NCBI GenBank assembly: GCA_002500605.1
Contig: DLRR01000021.1
Location: 130,418 to 194,417, forward strand
DNA length: 64,000 bases
Source of the DNA: Nitrospinaceae bacterium UBA7883
Lineage (GTDB): Bacteria; Nitrospinota_A; UBA7883
Reading direction: 5' to 3'
The translations under genes were made by a program, and so were the position numbers. Position 1 is the first letter of the stretch; every line of letters starts with the position of its first letter. Below the pieces are notes generated by a model. It made no database searches. It worked only from the letters and a program-made list of their open reading frames with translations, and had not been told where the DNA came from. Positions 3,943 to 48,500 of the stretch are shown one piece after another.

Positions 3943-4014
3943 CCAGCTTGATTTGACTTGCAATGTTCCAATGGGCTGGATTAAGTTGTCCTTGAATGCC
4001 AGAAACACATCCAT

Positions 4015-8735: not shown

Positions 8736-8748
8736 CCATATTGGTTCA

Positions 8749-10540: not shown

Positions 10541-10664
10541 GATAGATGTTTCAGCAATAATTCTAATTCGGTGAAAGTCCACTGTGACTTTTGTATCTAG
10601 CAAATTAGATATTTTTGCATTTTGTTACGGCAGATTTAGACATAATAGAGGACAGTCATCCAAG

Positions 10665-11795
10665 ATGAAAATTGGCATTGATATAAGAACTATAAACAAG
10701 CCCAAATCAGGAGTTGGCTATTACGTTACAAACCTATTAAAAGAGTTTGCTGAGGTTGATTACAATTGCCAGTACTGTCTAATTTCAAACGAAGGCACCG
10801 AAGAGTGGGCTTCAATAAACACGCCGAAGTTTCAAAACTATGTTACATGGATATCAAACGAAAATCACATAATTGGTGATTTATGGGAAAGCCTTTACCT
10901 CCCGTTTTTCCTTAAAAACGGGGGTGTAGACGTTTTCCATGGACCAGCTTTCATGATTCCTTTGCTGCAAAAAAAGAAAGTCCGCATGGTAGTAACAATA
11001 CACGATATAGTAGCCTATCTGATGCCAAACACCGTCCCGCTCAAATACGCGAAATACATGCAGTTGCTCATCAAACTCGTGGCAATGAGGGCAGACAAGA
11101 TAATCACCCCGTCAACCAGCACGAAAAATGATCTTATGAATTACCTCAACATTACCGACTCCAAAATTCAGGTTATCCATGAAGGCGTCTCAACCAAGTT
11201 TAAGCCACTATCTTCTGAGAAAGATCACAGCTACCTCCAAAAAAAGTTCGGAATCAAAAACCAATATATGCTTTTCATTGGCAATTTGGAACCGCGCAAG
11301 AACATAATACGGCTGATGCTTGCATATGACCAAGCCAGAGATAAGTTAAATGGAAATTGGCAGCTTGTAATATGTGGGAAAAAGGGGTGGTTGTACAAAG
11401 AAATATTGGAAACATACAATAAGCTAAAGAGAAACGGAGATATAGTATTGACCAATTATGTTAATGAGGTCGATCTTTTGGAACTATACAGGGGGGCTGA
11501 TATTTTTGCCTTTCCCACCCTTTACGAGGGATTTGGCTTGCCACCACTCGAAGCCATGGCCAGCGGTGTTCCTGTGCTTACTTCAAACGTTTCCTCTCTC
11601 CCGGAAATCGTAGGGGATGCTGCCCTACTTGTCGATCCAACAAGCGTGGATCAGATCAGTCAAGGTTTAGTAAAACTTGCACTATCCGAAAGCCTTCGAA
11701 AAAATTTGCGGGAAAAAGGGATCCGCCAAGCTTCCAAGTTCTCATGGAAGAAAACCGCAAAGGAAACTATGGATGCCTACTTTTCTGTTTTATAA
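10665..11795 (+). CDS. Glycosyltransferase family 4
   Basis: ATG at 10665 with RBS AGAGGA upstream. The C-terminal [38 protein letters not shown] matches GT4. Confidence 0.85.
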
Positions 11796-11828
11796 ACAGT
11801 GTCGTGAAAAATTGTCGTTCAGTTTCTC

Positions 11829-12980
11829 ATGACAGGTCTAATCGGTCTTATAATTGCCTTAATTATTTTCTTTACAAGATTTTTACTCAGTCCTCTTGGC
11901 TTGGGCAGGGCACCGTCAAAAGTTTTGGGCCAGCAATTTTTCAAAGATAAAGCCGCTGATCTCTCTTTTCTTACATTGCTAATTGACGGCGAGCAGGCAT
12001 TTGGTACCATTTTTAATTCTATCGAAAATGCAAAACGAAATGTGTTCATCCAGGCTTTCATTTGGCGCGATGATGCTACTGGCAACCGCATGGTAAAACA
12101 AGTAATCAAAGCTACTGCAAGCGGAGCTTTTGTTACCATACGCAAGGATCTGCTTGGTTCATATTTTGAGATAAAAGATATGATAAAAGGGAAGCCTAGC
12201 CCTGTCTTTGCCAATTCGGTAATGAGAGGGCATGGTGCTATCCGTATTATTACAAATCTCTTCGACAGTTCGGACCATAGCAAATACTACATAGTAGACA
12301 GGGAAAAAATTATTTTGGGTGGTATGAATATAGCTCTTGAATACCGTAACGAAATGCACGACTACATGGTAATGGTTAATGACTTAACAGTTGTTATGGC
12401 GATGGAGCGAAAACTGATTGGAGATGGTGCTTATATGCCGAAGACCCCTGGGCTGTTTCTTGCAACTAACAACCATCGTAAATGCGAGATAATAACTGCG
12501 TATCTCGAGATGATTCGCAATGCAAAAGAGCGAGTGATTTTACAGCACGCCTATTTTTCGGATAGGGAAATTATTTCTACTATCATTGAGGTGGCAAGGC
12601 ATGGTATACAAGTTGATGTGATCATTCCAAAATCACCAGATGTTAATGTTTACGCCAACTTAATTTCAATAAACGTACTCCTAGGTTCCTCTGCAGCATG
12701 CAATATTAATGTTTGGCTTTATCCGGGGAGTATCCATGCCAAGGTTGGGTTGGCAGACGGAAAAGTAGCAGCTGTGGGCTCAGCAAATTTCACTCATAGA
12801 AGCATGAGAAGAAACCGTGAGCTAACATTGTTTGTCCATGGTTCACCAGAAGAAACATTTATCAGCGATCTTTCCACACAGATGGAAATTGATATAAAAA
12901 GCAGCGAACTGATTAAAACTCCCGTCAATCTATCCACTAAAGAACGCCTATTGGCCTTGTACGACTATGCTGTCTGGTGA
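11829..12980 (+). CDS. Phospholipase D-family protein (cardiolipin synthase-like) with an N-terminal TM anchor and two HKD motifs
   Basis: HSKYYIVDREKIILGGMNI and IHAKVGLADGKVAAVGSANFTHRS are two HxK(x4)D motifs. Confidence 0.75.
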   Translation: MTGLIGLIIALIIFFTRFLLSPLGLGRAPSKVLGQQFFKDKAADLSFLTLLIDGEQAFGTIFNSIENAKRNVFIQAFIWRDDATGNRMVKQVIKATASGAFVTIRKDLLGSYFEIKDMIKGKPSPVFANSVMRGHGAIRIITNLFDSSDHSKYYIVDREKIILGGMNIALEYRNEMHDYMVMVNDLTVVMAMERKLIGDGAYMPKTPGLFLATNNHRKCEIITAYLEMIRNAKERVILQHAYFSDREIISTIIEVARHGIQVDVIIPKSPDVNVYANLISINVLLGSSAACNINVWLYPGSIHAKVGLADGKVAAVGSANFTHRSMRRNRELTLFVHGSPEETFISDLSTQMEIDIKSSELIKTPVNLSTKERLLALYDYAVW

Positions 12981-14210: not shown

Positions 14211-15155
14211 ATGGTTAATACGGCTGTAGTTTTTCCTGGTCAAGGATCTCAGTTTGTCGGTATGGGCCGCGAGCTTATAGAGTCCTCAGTAAAAGCTAAA
14301 GAACGAGTAGAGGAAGCCAACGACATCGTTGGCTTTAATATTGGTAAACTAATGCTTGAAGGGCCGGAAAGTGAATTGAATCTAACCTCCAATACCCAGC
14401 CTTCAATGCTGCTAATTTCAGTTATGATTTACGAAGAAATACAAGCACAGTTTGATTTTACACCAGTAGCGTTAGCAGGGCACAGCCTTGGTGAATTCTC
14501 AGCATGCTGGGCCGCAGGTGCAATTGGTTTTTCAGATGCAATTAAGCTAGTTAAAAAGCGTGGTGAATTTATGCAATCGGCGGTACCAGTTGGAGAAGGT
14601 ATAATGGCTGCTATCATTGGGCTTGATGCTGATGCAGTTACAGCAATCTGTGATTCGATTGAGGGCGTAGTTGAGCCAGCAAACTTTAATAGCCCTGAAC
14701 AAGTGGTGATTGGAGGTCGGGTTGCAGCAGTAAAGCAGGCAATGAAAGTTGCAAGTGATAAAGGCGCAAAAAAAGTTGTGTCCCTTTCGGTAAGCGCTCC
14801 ATTCCACACAAGCTTAATGGAACCTGCTGGTGTGAAGTTAGCTAGAGAACTAGAAAACATTTCACTTACAGACCCTAACATCCCAGTGGTTAGAAACATT
14901 GATGCAAAAGTTAATAAGACTAGCAAAGATGTGAGAAATGCCTTAACCAAACAGGTTACAGGGTGTGTTCTTTGGGTTGATTGTATAAAAAAATTAAAGG
15001 AATTTGATGTTTCTCTCGCTTTTGAAGTGGGCGCAGGAAGGGTGTTAACAGGGCTTATGCGGCGGATTGACAGAGCACTCAAAACCATACCAATTCATAG
15101 TGTAATAGATATTAACAAAGCAGTGGAGGAGTTAAATGGGCAAACTCGACGGTAA
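14211..15155 (+). CDS. fabD: Malonyl CoA-ACP transacylase FabD
   Basis: FPGQGSQ and the active-site GHSLGEFSA are present. Confidence 0.92.
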   Translation: MVNTAVVFPGQGSQFVGMGRELIESSVKAKERVEEANDIVGFNIGKLMLEGPESELNLTSNTQPSMLLISVMIYEEIQAQFDFTPVALAGHSLGEFSACWAAGAIGFSDAIKLVKKRGEFMQSAVPVGEGIMAAIIGLDADAVTAICDSIEGVVEPANFNSPEQVVIGGRVAAVKQAMKVASDKGAKKVVSLSVSAPFHTSLMEPAGVKLARELENISLTDPNIPVVRNIDAKVNKTSKDVRNALTKQVTGCVLWVDCIKKLKEFDVSLAFEVGAGRVLTGLMRRIDRALKTIPIHSVIDINKAVEELNGQTRR

Positions 15156-15876
15156 AGCTGCCATTATAACTGGTTCGGCAAAAGGCATTGGAAGAGCTAT
15201 TGCAGTGGCCTTTGCAAAACATGGTGCCGATCTTTTATTAATTACACGCTCTACACCACTTGACAGGTTAGCTGAAACATGCAGAGCGCACGGATCCAAC
15301 GTCGAGTGCATCACAGCAGACATTTCAGACCCAGCACAGGCACTCGCTGCAATTGAAACATGCAAAGATGTATTTGGAAAAGTTGATATACTAGTAAATA
15401 ACGCTGGTATAGCTCGTGACGGACTGCTTGTTAGGATGAAAGATCATGATTTCGAACTAGTATTGAAAACAAATTTAACCGGCTCCTTCAACTGTCTCCG
15501 CGCTGCCACAAAAATAATGATGAAACAAAGATATGGTCGTATAATCAACATTTCCTCTGTTGCAGGGCAAATGGGAAATGTGGGGCAGATAAACTACTCC
15601 GCAGCAAAGGCTGGGCTAATTGGCATGACAAAGTCTGCGGCAAAGGAGTTAGCTAGTCGCTCTATTACTGTAAATGCAATAGCGCCAGGGTTTATAGCTA
15701 CGGACATGACAAATGCCATGTCCGATAGAGCCAAGGAAGAAGCTCTAAAACTTATACCTATGGGCAGATTAGGCGATGTGGATGATATAGCAGCCGGAGC
15801 ACTATTTTTGGCTTCTGATGATGCAGCGTACGTAACAGGCCATACGCTTTCGATAAATGGTGGTATGTATATGTGA
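15136..15876 (+). CDS. fabG: 3-oxoacyl-ACP reductase FabG (SDR)
   Basis: AIITGSAKGIGRAIA, NAGI and YSAAKAG are SDR motifs. The gene lies in fab-cluster context. Confidence 0.9.
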   Translation: MGKLDGKAAIITGSAKGIGRAIAVAFAKHGADLLLITRSTPLDRLAETCRAHGSNVECITADISDPAQALAAIETCKDVFGKVDILVNNAGIARDGLLVRMKDHDFELVLKTNLTGSFNCLRAATKIMMKQRYGRIINISSVAGQMGNVGQINYSAAKAGLIGMTKSAAKELASRSITVNAIAPGFIATDMTNAMSDRAKEEALKLIPMGRLGDVDDIAAGALFLASDDAAYVTGHTLSINGGMYM

Positions 15877-15941
15877 AGTTTATATTGGAATTATTAAAGT
15901 TTAAACTAAAATGTTGAAATCCGAAAATTGGAGAAAAACTT

Positions 15942-16187
15942 ATGGCATCTATTGAAGAAAAAGTAAAAGACATTATTATTGAGCAACTCGAAGTAGAAGG
16001 AAACCAAGTTACACCTGAAGCAAGGTTCGATTCTGACTTAGACGCTGATTCACTGGACGTTGTTGAATTGGTTATGGCCTTTGAGGAGGAGTTTGACATT
16101 GAAATTCCAGACGAGGATGCTGAGAAAATTCATACGGTCCAACAGGCGACGGATTACATTTCCACTGCAGCTAACGCTTCTGAATGA
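15942..16187 (+). CDS. acpP: Acyl carrier protein
   Basis: [26 protein letters not shown] with the phosphopantetheine Ser. Confidence 0.92.
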
Positions 16188-16260
16188 ATTTCTTGTGCTC
16201 TATTTAGAGATCACCTTGAAACATCACACCACACAGGTGAAACAAGACAGCCTTTAACAC

Positions 16261-17505
16261 ATGAAAGATATAGTTGTTACCGGTCTCGGGATGGTTACCC
16301 CGCTTGGAATAGGCGTTAACGAGTCATGGAATAATATTCTGAACTCTAAAAGTGGCATTGGGCCTATCACAAAGTTTGACACAACAGGCTATCCAGTTAC
16401 GATTGCCGGCGAAGTTAAAGGATTCGATCCACTAGATTATGTGAGCAGAAAAGAAGCAAAAAAAATGGATACATTTATCCATTTTGCCATAGCATGTGCC
16501 CAATTTGCTCTTGATGATGCAGGGATTGACTTTTCCAATATTTCTAACGAACTACGAAACAGGTTTGCTGTAATTATTGGAGTAGGAATAGGGGGGCTTC
16601 CTGAGATAGAACGAACAGCAACAATTTTAAAGGATCGTGGACCACGAAAGATATCACCCTTTTTTATTCCATCTGTACTTACAAACCTAGCTGCTGGCCA
16701 AGTATCGATTAAATTTGGGCTTAAGGGACCTAGTTCATGTCCAGTCACCGCATGCACAACCGGCTCATCAGCTATTGGGGATGCAGCAAAGCTTATAGAA
16801 CGAGGAGATGCAGATATTGCCCTTGCAGGTGGGTCAGAGGCAGCAATTACGGGTCTAGGTGTTGCAGGATTTGCAGCGGCTAAAGCACTGTCTAGACGAA
16901 ATGATGACCCAGAACGTGCATCACGACCATTTGACAATGACAGAGATGGGTTTGTAATGGGCGAGGGCTGTGGCATTGTTGTCTTAGAAAGTAAAGAAAG
17001 AGCTAAAGAACGCGGAGCAAAAATCTATGCGGAATTAGTTGGATATGGAATGAGTTCAGACGCATACCATATGACAGCTCCACCGGTAAACGGAGAAGGG
17101 GCTGTGGCGTGTATGACAAATGCGCTTAAAGATGCGGGAATAAAACCAGAAGAAGTTGGGTATATAAATGCGCATGCAACATCCACAATGGCAGACAGCA
17201 TTGAGACCAAGGCAATAAAAACCGCTTTTGGCAAACATGCGTACAAGCTGGCTATATCTTCCACCAAGTCTATGACAGGGCACCTATTGGGTGCGGCCGG
17301 GGGAGTGGAAAGCATATTAACTATTTTGGCTCTTCAAACTAGTCTAATTCCGCCAACAATTAACAATGATAATCCAGACCCAGAATGTGATTTATTTTAT
17401 GTTCCCAACAAATCAATAAAAAAAGGTATTAATTTTGCCTTATCAAACTCATTTGGTTTCGGTGGTGTTAACGGATCGCTGGTTTTCAAAAAGTTTGATC
17501 ACTAA
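16261..17505 (+). CDS. fabF: 3-oxoacyl-ACP synthase II FabF
   Basis: 414 aa KAS II with the active-site Cys region CTTGSSAIG, plus HATST and GHLLGAAG. Confidence 0.92.
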   Translation: MKDIVVTGLGMVTPLGIGVNESWNNILNSKSGIGPITKFDTTGYPVTIAGEVKGFDPLDYVSRKEAKKMDTFIHFAIACAQFALDDAGIDFSNISNELRNRFAVIIGVGIGGLPEIERTATILKDRGPRKISPFFIPSVLTNLAAGQVSIKFGLKGPSSCPVTACTTGSSAIGDAAKLIERGDADIALAGGSEAAITGLGVAGFAAAKALSRRNDDPERASRPFDNDRDGFVMGEGCGIVVLESKERAKERGAKIYAELVGYGMSSDAYHMTAPPVNGEGAVACMTNALKDAGIKPEEVGYINAHATSTMADSIETKAIKTAFGKHAYKLAISSTKSMTGHLLGAAGGVESILTILALQTSLIPPTINNDNPDPECDLFYVPNKSIKKGINFALSNSFGFGGVNGSLVFKKFDH

Positions 17506-17520
17506 AACGATAAACAGAGA

Positions 17521-18249
17521 ATGGATAAAAAACGATTAGCAGAACTAAAATGCCTGACTATGGTGTTTGGGTACACTTTGAGAGATGAGCAATTGTTTAA
17601 CAAATCTCTCACGCATAAATCATTTGCTAATGAAAACCAGCACCAGGGGTTAGAGATTCGCCATAACGAAAGATTTGAATTTCTTGGTGACTCCGTCATA
17701 GACCTCATTATCTCCCGTTATATGGTTTTTCAAAATCGAAACATGACTGAGGGAGAATTGTCTAAAATTAGGGCACAGCTGGTTAATGAATACTCCCTAG
17801 CAGAATTCGCAAAATCTATTGGTTTAGGTGAATATCTGTTACTTGGGAAAGGTGAGGAGGCAAGTGGCGGCAGAAACAAAACTTCAATACTGGCTAATTC
17901 TTTTGAGGCCCTCATTGCTGCTTTTTTTCTCGACTCATCATTTGACGAGACCTATGAGTTATTCCTAAATCTTTTCCGCGATAAAATAGACAGTATTACA
18001 ATAGAGAAAAAGATTACGGACTACAAAGGCCATCTTCAAAAACACTGCCAAGCCCACATTTTGTCAACACCTACATACAAACTGATTGATCAAAGCGGAC
18101 CAGACCACCAGAAGTCATTCAAGGTTCAAGCTTTCATTTTGGGAGATGCCTATGGAATCGGCACGGGGAAAACCAAGAAAGAGGCCGAACAAGCAGCTGC
18201 TAGAATTAGCTACGAAACCCTTTCGATGCAAAGTAAATATCACCCTTAG
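17521..18249 (+). CDS. rnc: Ribonuclease III
   Basis: ERFEFLGDSVIDLIIS signature with a C-terminal dsRBD. Confidence 0.9.
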   Translation: MDKKRLAELKCLTMVFGYTLRDEQLFNKSLTHKSFANENQHQGLEIRHNERFEFLGDSVIDLIISRYMVFQNRNMTEGELSKIRAQLVNEYSLAEFAKSIGLGEYLLLGKGEEASGGRNKTSILANSFEALIAAFFLDSSFDETYELFLNLFRDKIDSITIEKKITDYKGHLQKHCQAHILSTPTYKLIDQSGPDHQKSFKVQAFILGDAYGIGTGKTKKEAEQAAARISYETLSMQSKYHP

Positions 18250-18264
18250 TTAGTTGACGGCTTC

Positions 18265-18983: not shown

Positions 18984-20111
18984 CTACCCCGTAACCAGTC
19001 TTGCTATGTCATTGTAAAAAGCAAGTGCCATCAGACACAAAATTAACACTATTCCAAGTTGTTGCGCCAGTTCTTGGTACTTAATTTTAACTGGTTTGCC
19101 CATTATGGCCTCTAAACTATAAAAAACTATATGCCCTCCATCTAGTACTGGAATTGGAAGTAGGTTTAGTATGGCCAAGTTTACAGATATCAAACCAATA
19201 AAATGCAATAAGTCTACAAAACCTTTCTGCGCTTGTTGTCCTGCAAGTTGCATTATACCAATGGGGCCGGCGATTTGGTCTGCTGGGATGTCACGCGATA
19301 AAAGCTTTGATATGGACCAAAAGGTAAATTTTGTCATATTCCATGTCCAGACAACGCCCTTATAAATGGCCTGATGAATTGGATATGCTTGCTTTTCAGT
19401 TTTAGGGATCACACCGATTAGCCCGATAGTTATTTTTTGTCCGTCAATGGTTTTTGTATTAAAAACTTTGGGAATGATCTTCACATTCTTCATCCTGCCA
19501 CTAGAGCGCTGTATCGAAATGGTTATTTCTTTCCCCGGGGATTTGTGTATAGCATCACGCACTTGGTCCCATGATTCTACGTTGATTTCACCTACCGCAT
19601 CTATCCGGTCTCCAGGTAAAATACCCGCAACCTCAGCTGGATCGCCCGCCATCACTTTTGCTACAACTCTAATCGGTTTATCAATACCGTACATAAATGC
19701 AATGGATAATATTACAGCAGCCAAACCAAAGTTAAATACTGGACCAGCGGCTACAATTGGCAAGCGTTTCCACACGGGCTGGCTCAAAAAAGAGCCTTCC
19801 GGCATATCTTCGTGATCGCTCATTTCATCGCCGAAAAATTTTACATACCCTCCCAATGGTATCCACGCCAAGATATACTCTGTTTCACCAACCTTGCGAC
19901 TTATAATAGTTTTCCCAAATCCTACACTAAATTTTTCTACCCTTACGCCAAGCAAACGACCAACAATAAAGTGGCCAAACTCGTGCACAATGATAAGAAA
20001 CGCTAATATAGCAAGGGCTGATGCTCCAAACTGTATCCAGCCAACAGCACGCCCTACCAAAATCCCTGGATCAGTCGTTCCAACCAAGCTAAGCAGTGTT
20101 ATAATTTCCAT
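18984..20111 (-). CDS. rseP: RIP metalloprotease RseP (site-2 protease, M50 with PDZ)
   Basis: HEFGHFIVGRLLGV HExxH in TM1, a PDZ region, and the C-terminal LDGGH motif. Confidence 0.88.
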   Translation of the reverse strand: MEIITLLSLVGTTDPGILVGRAVGWIQFGASALAILAFLIIVHEFGHFIVGRLLGVRVEKFSVGFGKTIISRKVGETEYILAWIPLGGYVKFFGDEMSDHEDMPEGSFLSQPVWKRLPIVAAGPVFNFGLAAVILSIAFMYGIDKPIRVVAKVMAGDPAEVAGILPGDRIDAVGEINVESWDQVRDAIHKSPGKEITISIQRSSGRMKNVKIIPKVFNTKTIDGQKITIGLIGVIPKTEKQAYPIHQAIYKGVVWTWNMTKFTFWSISKLLSRDIPADQIAGPIGIMQLAGQQAQKGFVDLLHFIGLISVNLAILNLLPIPVLDGGHIVFYSLEAIMGKPVKIKYQELAQQLGIVLILCLMALAFYNDIARLVTG

Positions 20112-20148: not shown

Positions 20149-20859
20149 TTATTGCAATGATTGTGTGTTAGGAAAGGACTTAGTAATTGTTCCTTCCGGT
20201 GCAATGAAGTTAAACCTAGAACAATCAATTTCTAAGCCTATTTTAACATCTGTATACGTTATTTGGTTTTTGTTTCCGAGGTAATCCACAAACGTAGTTT
20301 GCATTAGCTTAAAGGTATTCTTGTCCACCTTTAGCAATACCCCTTTAATTGACCTTTGAGGCTTTTTTGGTATAAGCCTTAGCATTATGTGTTCAAGTTT
20401 ATCGTTTTTTTTTCCAGGAACCAAGTCGATATTAAATAGCTCACTTATCAAAACCTCGCCAGACAAGAAAGTTGCAGGTGAAATTGAATGAAAATTGCCG
20501 GTGAAGTCCTCATAGTAAACGGATTTGTCCTCTGGATCGTAAAACCAAAGTCTAGAGCCGTTAACAACTATACTCATACCTTTTGGTGTTTCATAGTTCC
20601 ACCTCATCATAGAAGGTTTTTTTAAGATCAGCCGGCCATTGGTTTCTCCAGCAACTCCAAACCCACGAGTGATTGATATTTGCGAAAATTTCGCCGAAAG
20701 GGAATTAATTTCTCCTATCGCCTTCTCCACTTTGTTGATAACCTGCTTATTGTTCAGTCCAACCTTTTCCTCGGCCATCGAAACCAAAGAATCAACAGGT
20801 AACACAGGCAATAAGAACAGAACTAGAAATAAAGTTTTCATAAAAAACAAACTAAACAA
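20149..20859 (-). CDS. lolA: LolA-like outer-membrane lipoprotein carrier protein
   Basis: Signal peptide, then FSAKFSQ...GRLILKKPSMMRWNYETPKGMSIVVNGSRLWFYDP, matching the LolA fold pattern. Confidence 0.65.
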   Translation of the reverse strand: MFSLFFMKTLFLVLFLLPVLPVDSLVSMAEEKVGLNNKQVINKVEKAIGEINSLSAKFSQISITRGFGVAGETNGRLILKKPSMMRWNYETPKGMSIVVNGSRLWFYDPEDKSVYYEDFTGNFHSISPATFLSGEVLISELFNIDLVPGKKNDKLEHIMLRLIPKKPQRSIKGVLLKVDKNTFKLMQTTFVDYLGNKNQITYTDVKIGLEIDCSRFNFIAPEGTITKSFPNTQSLQ

Positions 20860-20890: not shown

Positions 20891-21496
20891 TTATCCTAGC
20901 CACCTTTTCACTTCGCCAGACGCGATCATTTGTATGGCCTTAGGATAAATAATATGCTCCTGCTCCAGAATTCTGGCAGAAAGAGACTCAACTGTATCTC
21001 TTGGCATAACTGGTACACATGACTGGATTATGATAGGCCCCGTATCCACACCTTCATCAACAAAATGAACTGTACAACCAGAAACCTTTACGCCATGATC
21101 CAGCGCCTGTCGTTGTGCGGCCAGACCAGGAAAAGACGGTAAAAGCGAAGGATGAACGTTTATGATATTCCCATCAAAACGGTGAATAAACTTTTTCGAG
21201 AGTATACGCATAAATCCAGCCAGACAAACAAGGTCAGCTCCAGACTCTTCCACTGCATCGGAAAGGGCAACATCATAAGTTGCTACATCATCATAGTTTT
21301 TACGCTGTAATACTTTACTTTTTATTGATTGATTCCTTGCACGCTCAAGTGCTTTCGCTTTAGAGTTATCTGACAAGACCAATACGGTGTCTGCATTTAT
21401 TTCACCAGACCTGCATGCGTCTACAATTGATTGTAAGTTGCTTCCCCTACCAGACACTAGTACAGCTATCTTCAGTTTATCTGTGGCAAACATCAA
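20891..21496 (-). CDS. purN: Phosphoribosylglycinamide formyltransferase PurN
   Basis: IAVLVSGRGSNLQ and NVHPSLLPSFPG are present. The start overlaps the stop of the upstream fusion gene by 4 bp. Confidence 0.9.
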   Translation of the reverse strand: MMFATDKLKIAVLVSGRGSNLQSIVDACRSGEINADTVLVLSDNSKAKALERARNQSIKSKVLQRKNYDDVATYDVALSDAVEESGADLVCLAGFMRILSKKFIHRFDGNIINVHPSLLPSFPGLAAQRQALDHGVKVSGCTVHFVDEGVDTGPIIIQSCVPVMPRDTVESLSARILEQEHIIYPKAIQMIASGEVKRWLG

Positions 21497-23538
21497 CTTT
21501 TTACCAGTGTTTCGTTGATTTTCCTAACCATTTCAATGTTTTGTGTATGTCCTGATTGACGGGCTGTAAATTTCCCGCAAATTGGTCGGCCCAGAAGGTA
21601 AAGGTCGCCAATCAGATCCAAAACCTTGTGTCGAGCAGGTTCGTTTGGGAAGCGCAAAGGTGTATTGATAACCTTTTCGCTATCTATCAGGATAAAGTTT
21701 GAAAGCTTACCACCACTTGCTAGCCCCATTTTTTCAAGCATTTTTATGTCTTTCAAAAATCCAAATGTTCTTGCTGGGGCTACGGTATCTTTATAATGAG
21801 AGCCACCACGGTATTCGTATTGATATCTCTGTTTACCAACTGGCTGTGGGTAATCTAGAAAATAGTCTATTGTAAATCCATCAGCCGGCTCAACTGTCAG
21901 AGTAGATGTCCCATCGGTGGCAGATACTGTCATCTCCTCTTTAATAACAATTGGCTCAATATTAGCTTCTTGTTCCACAAGTTCACCGTTCTCGATAAGT
22001 TCACAGAACTCTCGTGCCGATCCGTCCATTATTGGTGCCTCATCACCAATTTTGATTAGTAGGTTTGTAATCCCATAACTATGCAGCGCTGACAGTATAT
22101 GCTCTACTGTTTTTATGGTTACAATCTCACTAGACAATGTGGTTGCATACTCAGTAGATTTCACGCTTTCAAGGGAGGCTGGTATTTTGGTGCCAGTTGA
22201 AATACTCCAAAATAATATACCTGAATCAGGTGGCAACGGAGAAAGGATAAGTCCTGTATTAAGCCCAGAATGGAGTCCTTGACCACACAATACAACAGAG
22301 CTTTTAAGTGTGCATTGTGGGATGCTTTTTGGGCTTTTTGTACCTACCATACGAGAAGACAACTTTTTCTTTTTGGATTCCTTCTTCTGTTCACTTTCTT
22401 TTATGCTTTCTTCTTGCCCTGCTATTATCACGTGTTCTCCCGTTAAGGTATCTCCATCTGATCCAAGTGTAGCTAGTTCAAGCACGTGACGCAGTTCATC
22501 TGTATACCTAATAGCTGAAGAGCTTGTGAGTCTATCAAGTAGATTACTTTCAATAATCTTTATATTTTTCCCATATTGTTTTGAAATCGACTCTACAAAC
22601 TGTTGGGACAGTTCAAGCATATCCTCTCTTCGTTTAAACAGTGGTTCTATCAGCACGGTGTTGGGTTGTAACTTATCTGAAATGGCTTTGAATACCTTGG
22701 AAGAGCGTTTACTAGAACTTATTTTAGCTGATACGATTATAAGTAAGTCTTCTGTCTTAGCTTGGACAGAAAGAACTTCTAAAATCTTTCTGCGTGTTCT
22801 AGCAGGCAATGCATCTATTCGATCTACGAACAAAGTACCACCCGCTACCTTGGAAAGCATGGGCTGCGTTTTAGCGTATTTTTTGTTCTTAGTTTCCAAC
22901 CCAAAGCACTCCAACAATCCATCTTCGCCACTTGATATTAGACCAGAAACATGCATAAACAGATTTTTTGACTTACCTGAATTTCCGGCTATGTATCGCG
23001 CTGCCATCTCTGATGTTAAGCCAGGTTCACTAATTAGCAAAACTGGCTTGTTCGCTTTAGCGGCATCATCGAGATCTTTTAGGATGCGCCTTGAAATTCT
23101 CGACGGCCCACAAAACCAGTTTTCACTCTGGTAATGTTCTGCTTTACCTGATAAAACTGGTATTCGATTCTTTGCACCTTCTAAAGCAGAAGATATGGTT
23201 TTTAATATGGTTTCAAGTGAGAAAGGTTTTTCTATAAAATCAAATGCGCCCAGCTTTGTTGCTTTGACCGCCGTATCTATTGCACCATGCCCGCTCATCA
23301 TGATAACTTCTGATTTCAAGCCCATCCCCCTTAATAGCTTTAATGTTTGAATTCCATCAATGCCAGGCATCCAAATATCCAGCAGAATTATATCTGGGCT
23401 GTGCGCCCTAGCCATTCTGACGGCTGTCTCACCATCTTTGGCCATATTGACTTCGTACCCTTCATCAGAAAGAATTCCATGAATTGAAACGCGGATGTTT
23501 TCCTCATCGTCTATTACAAGTATCTTTACCTTGGCCAT
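21493..23538 (-). CDS. lpxC: Three-domain fusion protein (681 aa). It carries a response-regulator receiver (REC), a degenerate NtrC-type sigma54-interaction AAA+ domain that lacks ATPase motifs, and UDP-3-O-acyl-N-acetylglucosamine deacetylase LpxC.
   Basis: The REC domain is intact: KILVIDDEENIR...ILLDIWMPGIDG...MMSGHG...IEKPF. The central domain aligns to NtrC AAA+ but has Walker A SEPGLTSE, no GAFTGA, and Walker B DR. The C-terminus is full LpxC: CTLKSSVVLCGQGLHSGLNTGLILSP, TVEHILSAL, APIMDGSA, ARTFGFLKD, ARHKVLDLIGD and ARQSGHT. A K/E-rich linker replaces the HTH. The reading frame is continuous and there is no RBS before the LpxC part. Confidence 0.8.
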   Translation of the reverse strand: MAKVKILVIDDEENIRVSIHGILSDEGYEVNMAKDGETAVRMARAHSPDIILLDIWMPGIDGIQTLKLLRGMGLKSEVIMMSGHGAIDTAVKATKLGAFDFIEKPFSLETILKTISSALEGAKNRIPVLSGKAEHYQSENWFCGPSRISRRILKDLDDAAKANKPVLLISEPGLTSEMAARYIAGNSGKSKNLFMHVSGLISSGEDGLLECFGLETKNKKYAKTQPMLSKVAGGTLFVDRIDALPARTRRKILEVLSVQAKTEDLLIIVSAKISSSKRSSKVFKAISDKLQPNTVLIEPLFKRREDMLELSQQFVESISKQYGKNIKIIESNLLDRLTSSSAIRYTDELRHVLELATLGSDGDTLTGEHVIIAGQEESIKESEQKKESKKKKLSSRMVGTKSPKSIPQCTLKSSVVLCGQGLHSGLNTGLILSPLPPDSGILFWSISTGTKIPASLESVKSTEYATTLSSEIVTIKTVEHILSALHSYGITNLLIKIGDEAPIMDGSAREFCELIENGELVEQEANIEPIVIKEEMTVSATDGTSTLTVEPADGFTIDYFLDYPQPVGKQRYQYEYRGGSHYKDTVAPARTFGFLKDIKMLEKMGLASGGKLSNFILIDSEKVINTPLRFPNEPARHKVLDLIGDLYLLGRPICGKFTARQSGHTQNIEMVRKINETLVKS

Positions 23539-23673
23539 TTATATTTTTCCGTAACCGTTAGACATTCTGTGACTTTTTCTCTTGGTGTTACCAATAACGT
23601 GGCATCTTCAGTAATCCATAAAGGATACATCGGCGTGAAATGGGCTCTCCACTATACCCGGCAAATTGTAGCA

Positions 23674-26016
23674 CTAATTCGATGACAATTCGATAGTAAA
23701 CACTGCACCGGTCGGCTTGTTATCACTAACTTTAATAGTACCGCCATGGTCCACCACGACCTGACTAGCAATGGCTAGCCCCAATCCAGTGCCTTGCGCT
23801 TTAGTAGAAAAGTAGGACTGGAATATTTTCTCTTTATCTTTTTCCGATACTCCGTGCCCGTTGTCTATAACTTCAATCACAACTTTATCCCTAGCACTAT
23901 CATATATTGTTCTTATTATAATCAAACCCCCTTCGCCTATAGAGTCCATTGCATTTTCAACAAGATTTATCAATGCTCTTCTAAACTGTTCGGCATCAAT
24001 CGTAACCAGCTGAATCGCCGAGTCAAGTTCAGTTTCTATCAGTAAATTCTGCCGCGTATTTTGGTACAACTTCACTACTTCAAAAATAATATCATGTAGC
24101 ATCGTTGGTTCAGGACGAAGCCCCAAGGTAATAGATTCGCCTGGATCTAAAGGACCAGAGTACGATTCTGGTGATTCCGAAAACTGGCGAAACTTATCAA
24201 CCAGTGCTTTGAGCTGTTCTACTTCTTGGATAATGATATTTGTCGCATCGTCAAGCGCCTTTGGAAAATCAGCTGCATTTTGCTCATATTTTCTACGAAG
24301 TCGCTGTGTGTTTAATTGTATTGGGGTAAGCGGGTTTTTTATTTCATGAGCTATGGCTCTTGCCATTTCTCTCCAAGCTATGGTTCTCTGCGCCCCTATA
24401 AGATCCGTTATGTCGTCAAAAACAAATACCATCCCCACATACTGGCCCAAATGATCGGTCAACACTGAGCCTCCGGCTTTGAGTATTCGCTTCTTATTAT
24501 CAATTAGTAGATTTATTTCTCTTACGATCGTTTTTTCACCTTGCTCGCTCATTTCTCTTACCACGTTTCGAACTGGTGACAAATATTTAGGTTCTAACAT
24601 TGTATTAAAATTTTGCCCTCGGGATTTATCTTGTTCTATACCAAACATATGCGCGGCCGATTCGTTTATGGTTGTAACTACTCCAAGTTTGTCTAACGAA
24701 AAAATACCTCCGCCAACATTCTCAAGTATAGCTTCGACATACTGACCCCAATGATAAAGCTCTGTATTAGATTCTGATAATTCCACGTTAATACGTTCGA
24801 CTTGTTCTTTAGAATTTTTCAGGTCCAGCGTCATTTTATTAAACGCGCCTACCAGTTGCGCAGCCTCGTCACCCTTATTAGGTAAGTCTATTTGAATATC
24901 CAAGTTTCCTTTAGCCACAGCTTCGGTGGCCTCCGCAAGTAACTTGAGAGGAACAGTGATTCCTTTCGCAATGTAGAAACCAAACCAGATGGATGAAAAC
25001 ACAAGAACCAAAGCAACTGTTGCAAGTGTCAGTTGATATGAATCCTTTATCATCTCCTTTTTTATTCTTAGCTGCTTATAATCCTGAAAGGCCTCCAGAA
25101 TCCCCTGCACTTTTTCAAGTAGTCTTCTGGAAACAGTCTTTATTACCACAACAACGCCAAGCACATGGCTAGGCTTGCCCTTTGGTCTTATTAATATTGG
25201 TACCATGGAAACGACGTGGTTTTCTTCACGCACATCCTCTATGCTAGAAACAGCCTCTCCCATAGCAACTTTGGCAAGCATATTAAGTTCAGTGCGTAGA
25301 TCAAAATTCACAAAAAAAGCATTGTCCTTTCTTGCCTCTTCTATGATTTCAAAATCAGAGTTGTATACCTGAATCACGTCGACATCGTATTCGAAAGTCT
25401 TTTTTTGGATTTCTCGTTTAAGAACTTCACGGGCATCGGGATTCAATAGTTTTCCACGGTGTATAAGCCCTGCCACGTAAGCAGCATAAGACATGGTCTG
25501 TTTTTCAGAATTTTTGTATAGTGCCTCAGCAACAGCTACTGATTCATGTAAAGTTTGCTCAATAGGACTGTTTATCCATTTGTCTATTGTGTCACTAAGA
25601 AGTTCTGAAGCTACAGTAAACACAAGGATGGAAGGAATAAGGGTCAAACTAAGAAAAGCTATAACAAGACGAGCTTGAAATCTTGATCCGGCAATACCTC
25701 CTCGACGTTCGAAATAAAGCTTTATGATGTTACGGGCCACTAACAACAACAGAACAAGAACGAGGATTAATCCGAAGTTGAGGGAAATTGCTACAAGAAT
25801 ATTGTTTGAAATTGGAGTATTGATTTCTGATTCGGATAAAAACAGCGTGGCCATGAATAAAACGATGAAAAGTACAAACCCGGCCAACATAACGTATCTG
25901 GTTTTCCGCTTGCGTATATTTATTATGGAGTCAGGTTTTTCATCCCTGTAGTCTCCAGGGAGCACAAGCCATTTGGCAAAGTTCAAAGCACGATTCATTT
26001 GATGTTTGATATTCAT
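23674..26016 (-). CDS. ntrY: NtrY-like sensor histidine kinase (multi-TM N-terminal region, HAMP, PAS, HisKA, HATPase)
   Basis: Its H-box AIAHEIKNPLTPIQLNTQRL is characteristic of NtrY. The C-terminal HATPase_c carries GTGLGLAIASQVVVDHGG. The gene is syntenic with DUF4390 upstream and the REC/AAA gene downstream. Confidence 0.8.
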   Translation of the reverse strand: MNIKHQMNRALNFAKWLVLPGDYRDEKPDSIINIRKRKTRYVMLAGFVLFIVLFMATLFLSESEINTPISNNILVAISLNFGLILVLVLLLLVARNIIKLYFERRGGIAGSRFQARLVIAFLSLTLIPSILVFTVASELLSDTIDKWINSPIEQTLHESVAVAEALYKNSEKQTMSYAAYVAGLIHRGKLLNPDAREVLKREIQKKTFEYDVDVIQVYNSDFEIIEEARKDNAFFVNFDLRTELNMLAKVAMGEAVSSIEDVREENHVVSMVPILIRPKGKPSHVLGVVVVIKTVSRRLLEKVQGILEAFQDYKQLRIKKEMIKDSYQLTLATVALVLVFSSIWFGFYIAKGITVPLKLLAEATEAVAKGNLDIQIDLPNKGDEAAQLVGAFNKMTLDLKNSKEQVERINVELSESNTELYHWGQYVEAILENVGGGIFSLDKLGVVTTINESAAHMFGIEQDKSRGQNFNTMLEPKYLSPVRNVVREMSEQGEKTIVREINLLIDNKKRILKAGGSVLTDHLGQYVGMVFVFDDITDLIGAQRTIAWREMARAIAHEIKNPLTPIQLNTQRLRRKYEQNAADFPKALDDATNIIIQEVEQLKALVDKFRQFSESPESYSGPLDPGESITLGLRPEPTMLHDIIFEVVKLYQNTRQNLLIETELDSAIQLVTIDAEQFRRALINLVENAMDSIGEGGLIIIRTIYDSARDKVVIEVIDNGHGVSEKDKEKIFQSYFSTKAQGTGLGLAIASQVVVDHGGTIKVSDNKPTGAVFTIELSSN

Positions 26017-26028
26017 TTAGCAATCCCG

Positions 26029-26796
26029 CTATGGGTTCTTGTTATATTGTTCACTAACCTCAACTAGCTCAGCTGCTTTTTCTGAAAAATCAAAAGAAAT
26101 TGGCTTAGATTTCGACCAATCAGTGCCTAAGTTCCAATGCGATAGGAAAAACAGGATGTAGTTGAACGGAGGTATAAGTTTGAGTGCTTTTATTTGAGCT
26201 TTTACTCTAATATAGTAAACTGCATCGCTATCCAATTCGTCCACACTGCCGATTCCTTCCTCCTCTAGCTTTTTCATCCATTGCTCTAGTTCCTGGGTCT
26301 TCCTAATGACAATTGGGCTTTGCACTAGTGGCACTATTTGGCCGTTTTTGGTTGTTATTGCATTATTTTTTCCGCCCTTGATATTTTCTTTACCTCTCCT
26401 CATTAAAGCCTCGTCGATTTCATTTTCAAAATCGATATCGTCACTATCCTCGGCCAGTTTCTCCCACGTTAAGTACTCTTTAGTAAATGCGTCAAACATT
26501 GTCATACGCTTAATAGTGACTTGTTTCTCGGTCGTATCCCAATAGAAAAGGCGTTCTCTCCTAAGCTGAATTATGTAAGTAAAAGTAATGGGGGCTCCAC
26601 TGGCAAGAGTTTCTCTGATTTCTTGTGTAAATGCATCAGCCAAGAAAGTAGAAAGAATAATCTCTTTCTCCTTTATTTCAACGAATACATCAACCACCTC
26701 TGGGTCGCCTGCAAAAGAAAATCCGTACCACAGTGGCACCATTAACATACAGAAAGTAATTATGCGCAAATAAACCTTATGACAATCGTTGGTCAT
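26029..26796 (-). CDS. DUF4390-like protein. In Betaproteobacteria this family precedes ntrY-ntrX.
   Basis: An N-terminal hydrophobic segment is followed by RRERLFYWDTTEKQVTIKRMTMFDAFTKEYL. The pattern resembles the conserved DUF4390 core. It lies first in the operon with ntrY. Confidence 0.5.
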   Translation of the reverse strand: MTNDCHKVYLRIITFCMLMVPLWYGFSFAGDPEVVDVFVEIKEKEIILSTFLADAFTQEIRETLASGAPITFTYIIQLRRERLFYWDTTEKQVTIKRMTMFDAFTKEYLTWEKLAEDSDDIDFENEIDEALMRRGKENIKGGKNNAITTKNGQIVPLVQSPIVIRKTQELEQWMKKLEEEGIGSVDELDSDAVYYIRVKAQIKALKLIPPFNYILFFLSHWNLGTDWSKSKPISFDFSEKAAELVEVSEQYNKNP

Positions 26797-29606: not shown

Positions 29607-29687
29607 CATCAGATAATTGGAGCGAACTTCAACGAAAAAAGGGATTTTCTCCTTTTTAAATTTTGAATCATGAGGAGGGTTTTAATC

Positions 29688-30692
29688 ATGAAACTACGAG
29701 TCTTATTTTTATTTACAATTTTACTTGCACTAGTATCGGTGCACAGTAAAACTACTAATATTGCCGAGGGTATTACTATTTCCGGCTTTGTGGACACTAG
29801 TTACTACAGCAATGCATTGGACGGGTCATCAACTTTTGGCCTTGATCAGGCTGAAGTTGATTTTGAAAAAACTGTTGAAGGGCTAGGCGGGCTTAGGTTG
29901 GACCTTCAGCATTTAAATAACACGGATACTGGTGATGAAGTAATGGAACAGGGTTACGTATGGTTAGATTTGACTGCTGGTACAAACCTCACTTTCGGCA
30001 AGTTTAATGCTCCAATAGGCTTTGAACTAGGCGACCCCAACGAAATGTACCAATTTTCCCACGCCATGGTATTTGATTACGGTCTACCAGGAAATCTTAC
30101 TGGTGCAATGGTTTCAGGTGGATCCGGCATAATCGATTTTGCTGTTTACGCTGTTAACGGCTGGGACCTTATTGCAGATGACAACAAAGAAAAGACTATT
30201 GGAGGTAGAATTGGCTTAACCCCAATGGAAGGTGTAAACCTAGGTGTGTCACACATATCTGGTAAAGAGGGTGCAGCATCGGACAATCTATCGGTTCTCG
30301 ATGTTGACTTAACAATTACTACGATTGAAAACCTTACAATCGGTGGCGAATTCAATTCTGGGACACATGCAAAAGCTTCAGTTGTAACAGCTGGGGCAGA
30401 CGCAACTTGGGCCGGATGGTTGGTCATGGCCAATTACGCTTTCACTGACAAGGTGGCTCTTACATTGCGCTATGATGAGTTTGATGACAAAGACGGTGCA
30501 CGTCTCGGATCCGGTATTACGGAAAAACGAAATGCAGTTACTATTAGCCCGAGCTACGCAATAGGCGATGGTTTTGGGGTGTTAGCTGAGTATAGGTTGA
30601 CTAAATCGAATCAGAAGGTTTTCGCTGATGCAGATGGAAACTTACAAGATAGCATTTCAGAAATGGCTGTTGAGTTTACTTACTCTTTTTAA
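29688..30692 (+). CDS. Putative outer-membrane beta-barrel porin
   Basis: ATG 29688 with a GGAGGG RBS. Signal peptide MKLRVLFLFTILLALVSVHS. The sequence has alternating amphipathic beta-strand character and ends EFTYSF, a C-terminal aromatic OMP signature. Confidence 0.6.
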   Translation: MKLRVLFLFTILLALVSVHSKTTNIAEGITISGFVDTSYYSNALDGSSTFGLDQAEVDFEKTVEGLGGLRLDLQHLNNTDTGDEVMEQGYVWLDLTAGTNLTFGKFNAPIGFELGDPNEMYQFSHAMVFDYGLPGNLTGAMVSGGSGIIDFAVYAVNGWDLIADDNKEKTIGGRIGLTPMEGVNLGVSHISGKEGAASDNLSVLDVDLTITTIENLTIGGEFNSGTHAKASVVTAGADATWAGWLVMANYAFTDKVALTLRYDEFDDKDGARLGSGITEKRNAVTISPSYAIGDGFGVLAEYRLTKSNQKVFADADGNLQDSISEMAVEFTYSF

Positions 30693-33620: not shown

Positions 33621-34550
33621 TCAGCGATCGTATACAATTGCATCATAGCTTTTTAAGTCTAGCCCGAGCTCTGCTCGAAGAGTATTTAATATCAATTTGT
33701 TAATATTCATGAGCAACATATTAGATTCTGCTGGCTTTAGATAAAGTCGTACTGACGCTTCGTCCACCACCTCCTCATACGAGTTTATAAAACTAACTAC
33801 AGTATTAACCTCTCCGGGGACCCAAATGAACTCTTGCTCAATTGCATCAACAATTTCCCGTACAACAAAATCATTTATGAAGTCTGACTCAATTTTTGCT
33901 AGAAAATCGCTTTCTAAGGAGAAGTTGCTAAACTCGCTATCATATTTTTCTACCAAAGCTTGGGCTGCATGTTCAAGACGCTCTATAGCAATATTCATCC
34001 TCTCCTCCCTCTCAGCTGAGATCATAGGCACACGAAACTTTCCTTTTTGCGTAGGACCTAAAGTTGCAGGTTCAATAAAGTTTATAAGGTCACCAATCTG
34101 CTTTTCAGAACTCTCTCCGTACTCAGATGGATCGAAAGGGGTAAAAGTGTCTGTAAGCGTTCCAATTGTTATATCAGCTGTAACGATGTTTACATCCAGA
34201 TTTTCATCAGGCGGAACCTCAAACTCTCCGTTTACATACATTACAGGGCCAAACTCATCAAACTCTATGGCAACCACCTTTACTTCAAATATGCCACTAT
34301 CTTCTGCTTGAAGTCGGGCGGAGTTGGCCAATTTGTCTACAGTCGAGACCTTGGCCATCGGTCCTGCTAATCTTTCATCTCGCTCTTTAGCAACAAGCAC
34401 AGGTGTATAGAATTTCCATCTCGGTTTCTCATCTTTCTGTGAATTTTGTGCCCGTCTATCCTCAGTTAAGTCATCGGTTTGCATCCGCGATGCGATAGCA
34501 AGAATCAAGGCAAACCCAACTGCCATCCATGCCCAGCTATCAACACCCAT
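33621..34550 (-). CDS. Hypothetical acidic protein with an N-terminal membrane anchor; function unknown
   Basis: 309 aa. The N-terminal TM is MGVDSWAWMAVGFALILAIAS and the rest is highly acidic. No family recognised. It lies co-directionally downstream of the cbpA-like gene. Confidence 0.4.
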   Translation of the reverse strand: MGVDSWAWMAVGFALILAIASRMQTDDLTEDRRAQNSQKDEKPRWKFYTPVLVAKERDERLAGPMAKVSTVDKLANSARLQAEDSGIFEVKVVAIEFDEFGPVMYVNGEFEVPPDENLDVNIVTADITIGTLTDTFTPFDPSEYGESSEKQIGDLINFIEPATLGPTQKGKFRVPMISAEREERMNIAIERLEHAAQALVEKYDSEFSNFSLESDFLAKIESDFINDFVVREIVDAIEQEFIWVPGEVNTVVSFINSYEEVVDEASVRLYLKPAESNMLLMNINKLILNTLRAELGLDLKSYDAIVYDR

Positions 34551-44288: not shown

Positions 44289-44297
44289 GAGAAACAC

Positions 44298-45518: not shown

Positions 45519-45528
45519 TTGGGAGGTT

Positions 45529-48491: not shown

Positions 48492-48500
48492 GATCTTACT

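Follow-up and report, generated by a model that had tools for sequence, protein, structure and literature searches.

The DNA analysed here, a window of 64,000 nucleotides from contig DLRR01000021.1 of Nitrospinaceae bacterium UBA7883, carries on its reverse strand a gene in which a receiver domain (REC) and the lipid A deacetylase LpxC are joined in one protein. The fusion gene (21493-23538) encodes 681 aa in one unbroken reading frame, as identified by an open reading frame (ORF) scan. It probably specifies a response regulator with the enzyme LpxC as its output domain, LpxC being controlled through the receiver by an NtrY-like membrane kinase. Comparison of the homologs indicates that strong purifying selection keeps a phosphorylatable receiver joined to a catalytically complete LpxC in hundreds of lineages, whether or not other modules lie between the two, and often beside a gene for a dedicated membrane kinase. 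Since both domains are conserved while the AAA+ module lying between them drifts and is often missing, the conserved unit is, judged by sequence, the succession of kinase, receiver and LpxC.

Receiver and LpxC in one polypeptide

An initial annotation, made by reading the sequence, had described one gene running through three domains and had proposed a check with Pfam profiles. The ORF and the Pfam and NCBIfam matches bear this out, with matches to Response_reg, Sigma54_activat and LpxC. The receiver (Response_reg PF00072, residues 6-115, E 1.6e-30, 105.9 bits) was said to be intact, and the acidic pair (residues 10-11), the phospho-acceptor D54 in LLDIWMPG, S82 in MMSGHG and K104 in EKPF are all found in the places given for them. 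These residues (D10, D11, D54, S82 and K104) are invariant in 120/120 homologs.

The LpxC domain (PF03331, residues 408-675, E 1.9e-83, 280.5 bits at a cutoff of 27) covers positions 1-267 of the 268 in the model and passes the NCBIfam equivalog for lpxC, TIGR00325, with 250.2 bits against a cutoff of 187.25. The model for the bifunctional LpxC/FabZ protein, NF009667, reaches 205.7 bits against a cutoff of 465, the LpxC part alone being matched. Residues 405-673 match the solved LpxC of Pseudomonas aeruginosa, Aquifex aeolicus and Escherichia coli with E values from 1e-53 to 1e-45, and the domain as modelled with AlphaFold2 (AF2) superimposes on solved LpxC structures with a target-normalised TM score of 0.83-0.94 and a root-mean-square deviation of 1.6-2.0 Å (Foldseek). 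E479/H480, T591/F592, H637/K638, D641, D645 and H664 are present, and all nine are invariant in 120/120 homologs; leaving F592 aside, their counterparts in E. coli are presumably the zinc ligands H79, H238 and D242 and the catalytic residues E78, H265, T191, K239 and D246. The claim of a full-length LpxC with its zinc ligands and catalytic residues is thus upheld, the activity itself being predicted.

The two domains are equally conserved. Within the clade of the window protein the mean pairwise identity is 0.73 for REC and 0.73 for LpxC, as against 0.34 (AAA core) and 0.37 (lid), and the AAA core of the window protein is only 0.23 identical to its own clade. The same pattern recurs in all three groups of architectures described below, with means of 0.62-0.73 for REC and LpxC versus 0.34-0.42 for the AAA core and lid. 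When fused and stand-alone enzymes are compared, 48 LpxC positions are invariant in both, among them the zinc ligands and the catalytic Glu and His. A further 17 positions between residues 416 and 626 are specific to the fused enzymes, being at least 93 % conserved there and at most 10 % shared with stand-alone enzymes: V416, T428, G429, I431, S461, Y464, Y488, L494, K496, C512, Y559, P564, G568, P588, L617, K622 and T626. These positions are candidates for a receiver-docking or regulatory surface.

The AF2 model of the window protein, built on an alignment of 84 sequences, has a mean predicted local distance difference test score (pLDDT) of 84.4. Receiver and LpxC are confidently predicted, the AAA+ core with its lid is folded as well, and the three modules are connected by two low-confidence tethers, residues 126-134 and 374-401, the latter with pLDDT below 50. 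In a minimal relative that consists of receiver and LpxC (P0121), the predicted template modelling score (pTM) is 0.81 despite a disordered tether of 30 residues. This value is above expectation for two independently placed domains and, read from pTM alone, is compatible with packing of the receiver on LpxC.

The vestigial AAA+ module

The module between receiver and LpxC is matched weakly by Sigma54_activ_2 (residues 144-283, E 2.7e-10) and by Sigma54_activat (residues 146-258, E 3.2e-7, 30.6 bits at a cutoff of 20.2, compared with 65-163 bits in long-form relatives), and its lid by AAA_lid_14 (residues 302-382) with 26.2 bits, slightly below the cutoff of 27. Walker A of the window protein reads SEPGLTSE (170-177), Walker B reads FVDRID, and the arginine finger and sensor II are degenerate. 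No GAFTGA-like motif was found anywhere in this protein, nor in any of 121 AAA-containing fusions. The Walker A consensus GxxGxGK is kept in 115/121 of them, the window protein being one of the six that lack it, and the Walker B pair DE is kept in 4/121. Given that GAFTGA is absent from all 121 and DE survives in four, the motif tables indicate that the loss of σ54 contact is family-wide and old, and that the loss of ATP hydrolysis probably is so too.

The same tables confirm the claim that Walker A, the Walker B Glu and GAFTGA have been lost from the window protein. It must be added that the last two losses are common to the family and that the loss of Walker A is what sets this protein apart; by sequence, it is the most degenerate AAA-containing member of the fused family. 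The fold is nevertheless retained in the prediction, with the α/β core of five parallel strands and the lid helices modelled at pLDDT of about 70-95. The module looks like a vestige that is still folded and would act as a spacer or as a scaffold for dimers, rather than like a hexameric switch. The suggestion of a dead AAA+ ring that serves as an oligomerisation switch is disfavoured, because the AAA+ part is the least conserved, is missing in 114 clusters of the REC-LpxC form, and in the window protein has lost the nucleotide-binding residues that are normally needed for ring assembly.

The linker and the missing helix-turn-helix

The DNA of the linker is A-rich, with A5 runs. It contains no stop codon before the internal Met codon and no Shine-Dalgarno-like sequence ahead of ATG-397 (ttgtcttctcgtATG), in agreement with the initial reading that neither a ribosome-binding site nor a stop separates the two parts. 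It had also been proposed that the LpxC part begins with its ancestral Met and that a stop codon was lost. The homologs do not support this: any Met within 15 residues upstream of the QxTLK motif occurs in only 17/115 of them, and the canonical LpxC N-terminus aligns around residue 403. An internal start yielding free LpxC was considered as well and rejected, since no Shine-Dalgarno-like sequence precedes ATG-397 and the Met is unconserved.

In the window protein no Pfam match to HTH_8, the Fis-type helix-turn-helix (HTH), was obtained, and a disordered linker of 25 residues stands in that position. The linker measures 13-37 aa in short forms versus 62-85 aa in long forms, which bear an HTH-like segment. 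Many members of about 730 aa keep GExGTGKE together with an extra segment of about 68 residues between lid and LpxC, in which the alignment reveals an 'AWEKEFI…'-like motif. When six long forms were tested against HTH_8, two reached the gathering score (P0100 and P0083), two gave sub-threshold matches and two no match. The idea that the HTH gave way to a linker and LpxC therefore stands in part: a linker does occupy the HTH position, but replacement by LpxC is not supported, since 59 long members carry the long segment between lid and LpxC. Because these 59 members retain a segment of 62-85 residues that is HTH_8-like in some, LpxC appears to have been appended to a complete regulator and the HTH deleted afterwards.

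Distribution, architectures and origin of the family

The protein search covered 5.8 billion proteins, and the matches were clustered at 90 % identity. At least 120 full-length homolog clusters possess the whole arrangement of REC, Sigma54, lid and LpxC, with 38-53 % full-length identity and scores from about 500 bits upwards against the window protein. Four independent sources contributed them (NCBI, ENA, JGI and Logan); they include contigs longer than 2 Mb and, where the source is named, belong to Nitrospinota/Nitrospinae, Candidatus Schekmanbacteria and Thermodesulfobacteriota. The closest protein (P0001, locus L081) is 99.7 % identical, with two substitutions (N124H and P245S). Its gene lies on a Tara Oceans scaffold of 265 kb, where the neighbouring genes follow the same order as in the window; the window thus stems from a near relative, or a variant, of that assembly. 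In GTDB species genomes, the matches listed include fusions from Nitrospinota, Nitrospina, Desulfomonile, Syntrophobacter, Thermodesulfovibrionia, Binataceae, Acidobacteriota and Aminicenantes.

Among 236 retrieved clusters three architectures have been identified: (i) REC-AAA-HTH-LpxC, 59 clusters; (ii) REC-AAA-LpxC, 63 clusters; (iii) REC-LpxC, 114 clusters. They derive from Nitrospinota, Thermodesulfobacteriota, Nitrospirota, Binatia, Acidobacteriota and Aminicenantes. In the third form, found at L008-L020, the receiver is followed by about 30 residues and then by LpxC, and no AAA+ is present. As in the window protein, receiver and catalytic domain share one polypeptide, encoded by single ORFs of 393-463 aa. 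Examples are L012:9992-11251 and L013:9944-11284, and such ORFs usually lie directly downstream of an NtrY-like kinase gene. Their hosts (L008, L009 and L011-L020) are Syntrophobacter, Thermodesulfovibrionia, Binataceae, Acidobacteriota and Aminicenantes, and in a second protein search this form made up about 110 of the 120 best clusters (Nitrospirota, 'Deltaproteobacteria' and Binatia). Annotation pipelines label the fused proteins merely as LpxC or NtrX.

The architecture had been thought undescribed. It is not unique to this organism, being found in at least 236 clusters from several phyla; the absence of a description is borne out for the literature searched. No paper describing the fusion was found there, most subscription-journal papers and the domain-architecture databases lying outside its coverage, and no report of LpxC as a response-regulator output domain was found in it. 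In a 2025 review of lipid A regulation (PMC12444477) the words 'fused', 'fusion' and 'receiver' do not occur.

A neighbour-joining tree was calculated from 67 fused and 30 stand-alone LpxC domains with 200 bootstraps. All of them (200/200) unite the fused domains in a single clade. Within it the architectures are intermixed, monophyly of the REC-LpxC forms being recovered in only 14/200 and that of the AAA-containing forms in 0/200. Identity is 0.55-0.68 among the fused LpxC domains and 0.39 to stand-alone LpxCs. The simplest reading of these sequences is that, in a single ancient event, lpxC was joined to the C-terminal end of a complete REC-AAA-HTH regulator and that HTH and AAA+ were afterwards lost repeatedly through internal deletions.

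As for the regulator, residues 5-391 of the window protein match the solved NtrC4, NtrC1 and Brucella NtrX at about 1e-37 in a search against solved structures. The best NCBIfam model of its N-terminal 390 residues is NtrX (NF051870), with 200.5 bits against an equivalog cutoff of 600 over model positions 3-400 of 452. P0052, which is the best preserved of the long forms, scores 408.6 bits. The nearest unfused relatives are proteins of about 450 aa with 40-47 % identity over REC-AAA-HTH, in which a GAFTGA-like loop and the Walker B DE are each present in 115/134. NtrX is likewise the best model, below cutoff, for five of the six unfused matches scanned, while P0240 marginally favours AtoC. Because NtrX is the best model for the fused module and for five of these six relatives, profile scores place the origin of the module in the NtrX-like part of the NtrC family. 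Direct descent from a bona fide NtrX is only partly supported, as the NtrX model scores far under its cutoff and the nearest unfused relatives mostly have GAFTGA and DE. Since these relatives mostly carry both motifs, the ancestral regulator may still have been a working σ54 activator when the fusion arose.

Genomic context

The features of the locus are collected in Table 1. The neighbourhood given in the initial annotation (DUF4390, ntrY-like kinase, fusion, purN, lolA, rseP) is confirmed by Pfam for all neighbours, and the overlap of the fusion TGA with the purN ATG (TGATG), on which the coupling to purN would rest, can be read directly. The kinase gene ends 135 nt upstream of the fusion on the same strand.

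Table 1. Features of the fusion gene and of its neighbours in the window
Feature	Coordinates	Strand	Evidence
Whole fusion gene, 681 aa: REC, degenerate σ54-type AAA+ and lid, disordered linker, LpxC	21493..23538	-	ORF, Pfam, NCBIfam, >120 full-length homologs, AF2
Receiver (REC), residues 6-115; phospho-acceptor D54, with D10, D11, S82, K104	23194..23523	-	PF00072, E 1.6e-30
Vestigial σ54-type AAA+ core and lid, residues 144-382	22393..23109	-	Sigma54_activat, motif tables, AF2
Lys/Glu-rich linker, residues 383-407, where longer members have the Fis-type HTH	22318..22392	-	AF2, alignment
LpxC (UDP-3-O-acyl-GlcNAc deacetylase) domain, residues 408-675, catalytic set complete	21514..22317	-	PF03331, TIGR00325
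NtrY-like membrane sensor histidine kinase (NtrY_N, HAMP, PAS, HisKA, HATPase_c), presumed phosphodonor	23674..26016	-	Pfam
DUF4390 protein, first gene of the presumed operon	26029..26796	-	PF14334, E 4.8e-17
purN	20891..21493	-	Formyl_trans_N, E 4.9e-64
LolA-like lipoprotein carrier, conserved downstream neighbour	20149..20859	-	PF03548, E 2e-25; synteny
RseP-type site-2 (M50) protease with PDZ domain, conserved downstream neighbour	18984..20111	-	PF02163, E 2e-66; synteny

In the clade of the window protein the order (glgB)-DUF4390-ntrY-like-fusion-purN-lolA-rseP is maintained at about 50 % protein identity, and the part from fusion to rseP is also kept at the Nitrospinota loci L002, L007, L082 and L083. 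A kinase homologue lies directly upstream of the fusions at L001, L008, L009 and L011-L017, and is also found beside P0016 and P0018. A promoter and terminator scan of 18.8-29.4 kb gave counts at or under the shuffle expectation, with nothing informative in the 135-nt gap between kinase and fusion.

Other lipid A-related genes occur in the window. The presence of waaA, the Kdo transferase gene (4668-5948, forward strand; PF04413, 190 bits), indicates that the organism makes Kdo-lipid A. Its end is overlapped by an APH-family kinase gene (5941-6954, forward strand), possibly a Kdo or heptose kinase, and genes for GT4 and GT2 glycosyltransferases, a flippase, a methyltransferase and a PLD-like protein at 753-12980 resemble a lipopolysaccharide (LPS) core or polysaccharide cluster, about 15 kb from the fused lpxC. 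The genes fabD-fabG-(acpP)-fabF (14211-17505, forward strand) converge with the locus at its rseP end. Genes for fatty-acid synthesis thus stand beside the LpxC locus, and both pathways compete for R-3-hydroxyacyl-ACP.

At L012 a separate, canonical σ54 response regulator (Sigma54_activat 239 bits, HTH_8 49 bits) and a PAS histidine kinase are encoded at 15602-18257 on the reverse strand, about 4 kb downstream of the REC-LpxC gene; receiver and kinase tblastn matches occupy the equivalent position at L011. Elsewhere in the window are a BBP2/OmpL-like β-barrel porin gene just past glgB (29670-30692, forward strand), an ORF of 309 aa that lacks a Pfam match at E 1e-5 (33621-34550, reverse strand), a complete-looking type II secretion cluster with GspC-like protein, secretin GspD, GspE, GspF, GspK and GspL (39659-51387, forward strand), and a TRAP-type transporter pair consisting of an NMT1_3 binding protein and a 677-aa DctM-family membrane protein (51650-55065, forward strand).

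Proposed mode of action and alternative explanations

In the proposed mechanism the NtrY-like kinase would phosphorylate D54, and the state of the receiver would alter the output of LpxC and hence the lipid A flux. The receiver might contact or occlude the enzyme, in a CheB-like manner, or dimerise it. Lipid A flux would in this way be tuned post-translationally by an envelope or redox signal. The AAA+ module of the window protein would neither bind nor hydrolyse ATP, nor contact σ54, and would be kept as a folded spacer or dimerisation scaffold between the two flexible tethers. The core idea of the initial annotation, a membrane kinase that signals to LpxC, is strengthened and plausible, given phosphorylation residues that are invariant in 120/120 homologs and an NtrY-like kinase upstream in many lineages. 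A further-reaching version may also hold, at somewhat short of an even chance: the fused gene would be the only lpxC in Nitrospinota and several other phyla, phosphorylation by the NtrY-like envelope or redox sensor would directly switch catalysis in place of FtsH/LapB proteolysis, and the family would record how a transcription factor (REC-AAA-HTH) turned step by step into a response regulator whose action is purely enzymatic (REC-LpxC).

Several points weigh against control of LpxC by the kinase through the receiver, or against its further-reaching version. At L002 and L007 (Nitrospinota/Nitrospinaceae) no histidine kinase gene is found within 10 kb upstream of the fusion, its place being taken by rlpA-like, greA and trmB genes. 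Because these two loci keep purN, lolA and rseP without an adjacent kinase, the link of the fusion to these three genes is, by synteny, more conserved in Nitrospinota than its link to the kinase. The AF2 model of the window protein has a pTM of 0.52, with no fixed arrangement of the domains predicted. Of this genome, only the 64-kb window was scanned for another lpxC; tblastn, in which the fused domain and a pair of stand-alone enzymes served as queries, gave no second copy there. The tree is a neighbour-joining tree only, and its outgroup is limited to the 30 stand-alone LpxCs, mostly from Proteobacteria. Finally, it is from sequence that we infer an effect of phosphorylation on LpxC activity, as opposed to an effect on stability or localisation or no effect.

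Phosphorylation might instead set the amount or the location of LpxC and leave catalysis alone, either by means of a phospho-dependent degron or adaptor, comparable to RssB and to the control of LpxC by FtsH/LapB and Lon, or by tethering the enzyme to the membrane kinase near its lipid substrate and the downstream enzymes. The well-studied controls of LpxC do all use proteolysis, a partner protein or localisation (FtsH/LapB, Lon, MurA, Ght; PMC12444477). The kinase of the window is membrane-bound according to its Pfam layout, flexible tethers are predicted to flank the modules of the fusion, and the conserved neighbours rseP and lolA are envelope-quality genes. REC domains are, moreover, known to dock on the DHp domain of kinases. 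This explanation is nonetheless rather unlikely: apart from rseP, which encodes a membrane site-2 protease, no protease or adaptor gene is conserved beside the fusion, the pTM of 0.81 for REC-LpxC hints at a defined intramolecular contact, and the 17 fused-specific LpxC positions fit an intramolecular interface at least as well. Alternatively, the fusion could merely ensure co-expression, in the manner of a Rosetta-stone protein without allostery, with LpxC constitutively active and the N-terminal part a decaying remnant or phosphate sink of a former regulator of lpxC transcription. The HTH retained in ancestral forms, the control of lpxC transcription by related unfused regulators, the visible decay of the AAA+ and HTH modules and the lack of confident docking in the model of the window protein would all suit such a history. 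Its probability is low, however, since the receiver equals the enzyme in conservation (0.73) and 120/120 homologs share its five functional residues. Lineages without AAA+ and HTH still keep REC fused to LpxC with the kinase upstream, and this speaks against a useless remnant, which would have gone first.

It is very improbable that the LpxC-like domain senses a ligand, or acts as a paralogue on another substrate, with a separate stand-alone lpxC doing the housekeeping. The fused domains do form their own clade with 17 clade-specific positions and only about 39 % identity to stand-alone enzymes, and a second lpxC could lie outside the 64-kb window. On the other hand, about 39 % lies within the range of identity usual between LpxCs of different phyla, the TIGR00325 equivalog is passed with 250 versus 187 bits, and all 48 positions invariant in both groups are retained. 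The window protein also has no DNA-binding domain through which a sensor could exert its output, and no second LpxC was detected in the window or, by tblastn, in any of the 10-kb flanks of 20 related loci (L001-L020). An assembly chimera, frameshift or pseudogene joining ntrX and lpxC, which the A5 runs of the A-rich linker might have suggested, is excluded for practical purposes, because the same continuous architecture is shared by at least 120 independent full-length homolog clusters, including those on contigs longer than 2 Mb. Base composition is also even along the whole gene, and a near-identical copy exists on the independent Tara Oceans scaffold.

Comparison with known systems

The nearest counterparts are the NtrY/NtrX systems of Brucella, Rhodobacter sphaeroides and Caulobacter. 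The kinase of the window shares the NtrY_N-HAMP-PAS-HisKA-HATPase layout, and the regulator module has NtrX as its best-matching model and lacks GAFTGA, NtrX itself being listed among the atypical enhancer-binding proteins in which this motif varies (PMC6158489). NtrX, however, is a DNA-binding repressor or activator with a Fis-type HTH that acts on lpxC indirectly, whereas the fusion has no HTH, widely misses the NtrX cutoff, has a destroyed Walker A and carries LpxC in the same polypeptide. NtrYX controls cell-envelope genes (PMC7240162; PMC12444477). In R. sphaeroides it represses lpxC, which is 8.8-fold derepressed in the mutant with more LPS formed, and no NtrX site is present at lpxC; in Caulobacter NtrYX represses lpxC too (PMC7240162; PMC12444477).

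In Desulfovibrio, lpxC is the sole mapped target of the regulator DVU2934/Dde_3003 with its kinase DVU2931/Dde_3000 (PMC3333781; PMC4045070). The authors note orthologs in Geobacter and Acidobacterium, and that lpxC adjoins the orthologous operon in Syntrophobacter fumaroxidans (PMC3333781, 2011). Like the system proposed here, this is a dedicated two-component system aimed at lpxC, and fusions from Syntrophobacter, Acidobacteriota and 'Deltaproteobacteria' metagenome-assembled genomes are among the matches listed. In contrast to the fusion, DVU2934 is described as a σ54-dependent activator working on transcription at a σ54 promoter, and kinase, regulator and enzyme are separate proteins.

Among response regulators with an enzymatic output domain, CheB, PleD/WspR, RpfG and RssB likewise possess an N-terminal receiver fused to a catalytic domain by a flexible linker, with a cognate kinase nearby. 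In CheB the unphosphorylated receiver occludes the active site. The fusion differs from these proteins in having LpxC as its output and, in the window protein, a vestigial AAA+ between receiver and enzyme. Atypical σ54-independent enhancer-binding proteins, too, have the AAA+ fold of the σ54 type, but their GAFTGA varies and, in some cases, their Walker motifs depart from the consensus; those with a variant GAFTGA are TyrR, HupR, HsfA, PhhR, NtrX and VpsR (PMC6158489). They are still transcription factors with an HTH, unlike the window protein, which has neither HTH nor nucleotide-binding site. The known controls of LpxC itself comprise proteolysis (FtsH/LapB, Lon), the partner MurA, localisation by Ght and two-component transcription (PMC12444477). 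FtsH/LapB/YejM in E. coli and activation by MurA in P. aeruginosa work through proteolysis or through a partner enzyme in trans. In the fusion, by contrast, enzyme and phospho-receiver are covalently linked.

Significance of the fusion

LpxC, a leading antibiotic target, is where Gram-negative bacteria weigh LPS production against the synthesis of phospholipids and peptidoglycan. Enzymes as output domains of response regulators are already known, and so is control of lpxC by two-component systems; what appears to be new is the receiver fused to LpxC, in a family for which no published description was found in the literature searched. If the proposed mechanism is correct, direct phospho-control by means of a covalent receiver and a dedicated membrane kinase would join the known controls of LpxC. 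The links of NtrYX to lpxC in Alphaproteobacteria and of DVU2934 to lpxC in Desulfovibrio would then reflect an ancient, widespread coupling. The family provides a simple experimental system, with one polypeptide, one aspartate and a standard enzyme assay, and a clear evolutionary series in which a σ54-type factor sheds, in this order, σ54 contact, ATP hydrolysis, DNA binding and finally AAA+ while gaining an enzymatic output. Nitrospinota are the main known marine nitrite oxidisers, and the finding bears on the envelope physiology of environmentally important uncultured bacteria, Nitrospinota among them.

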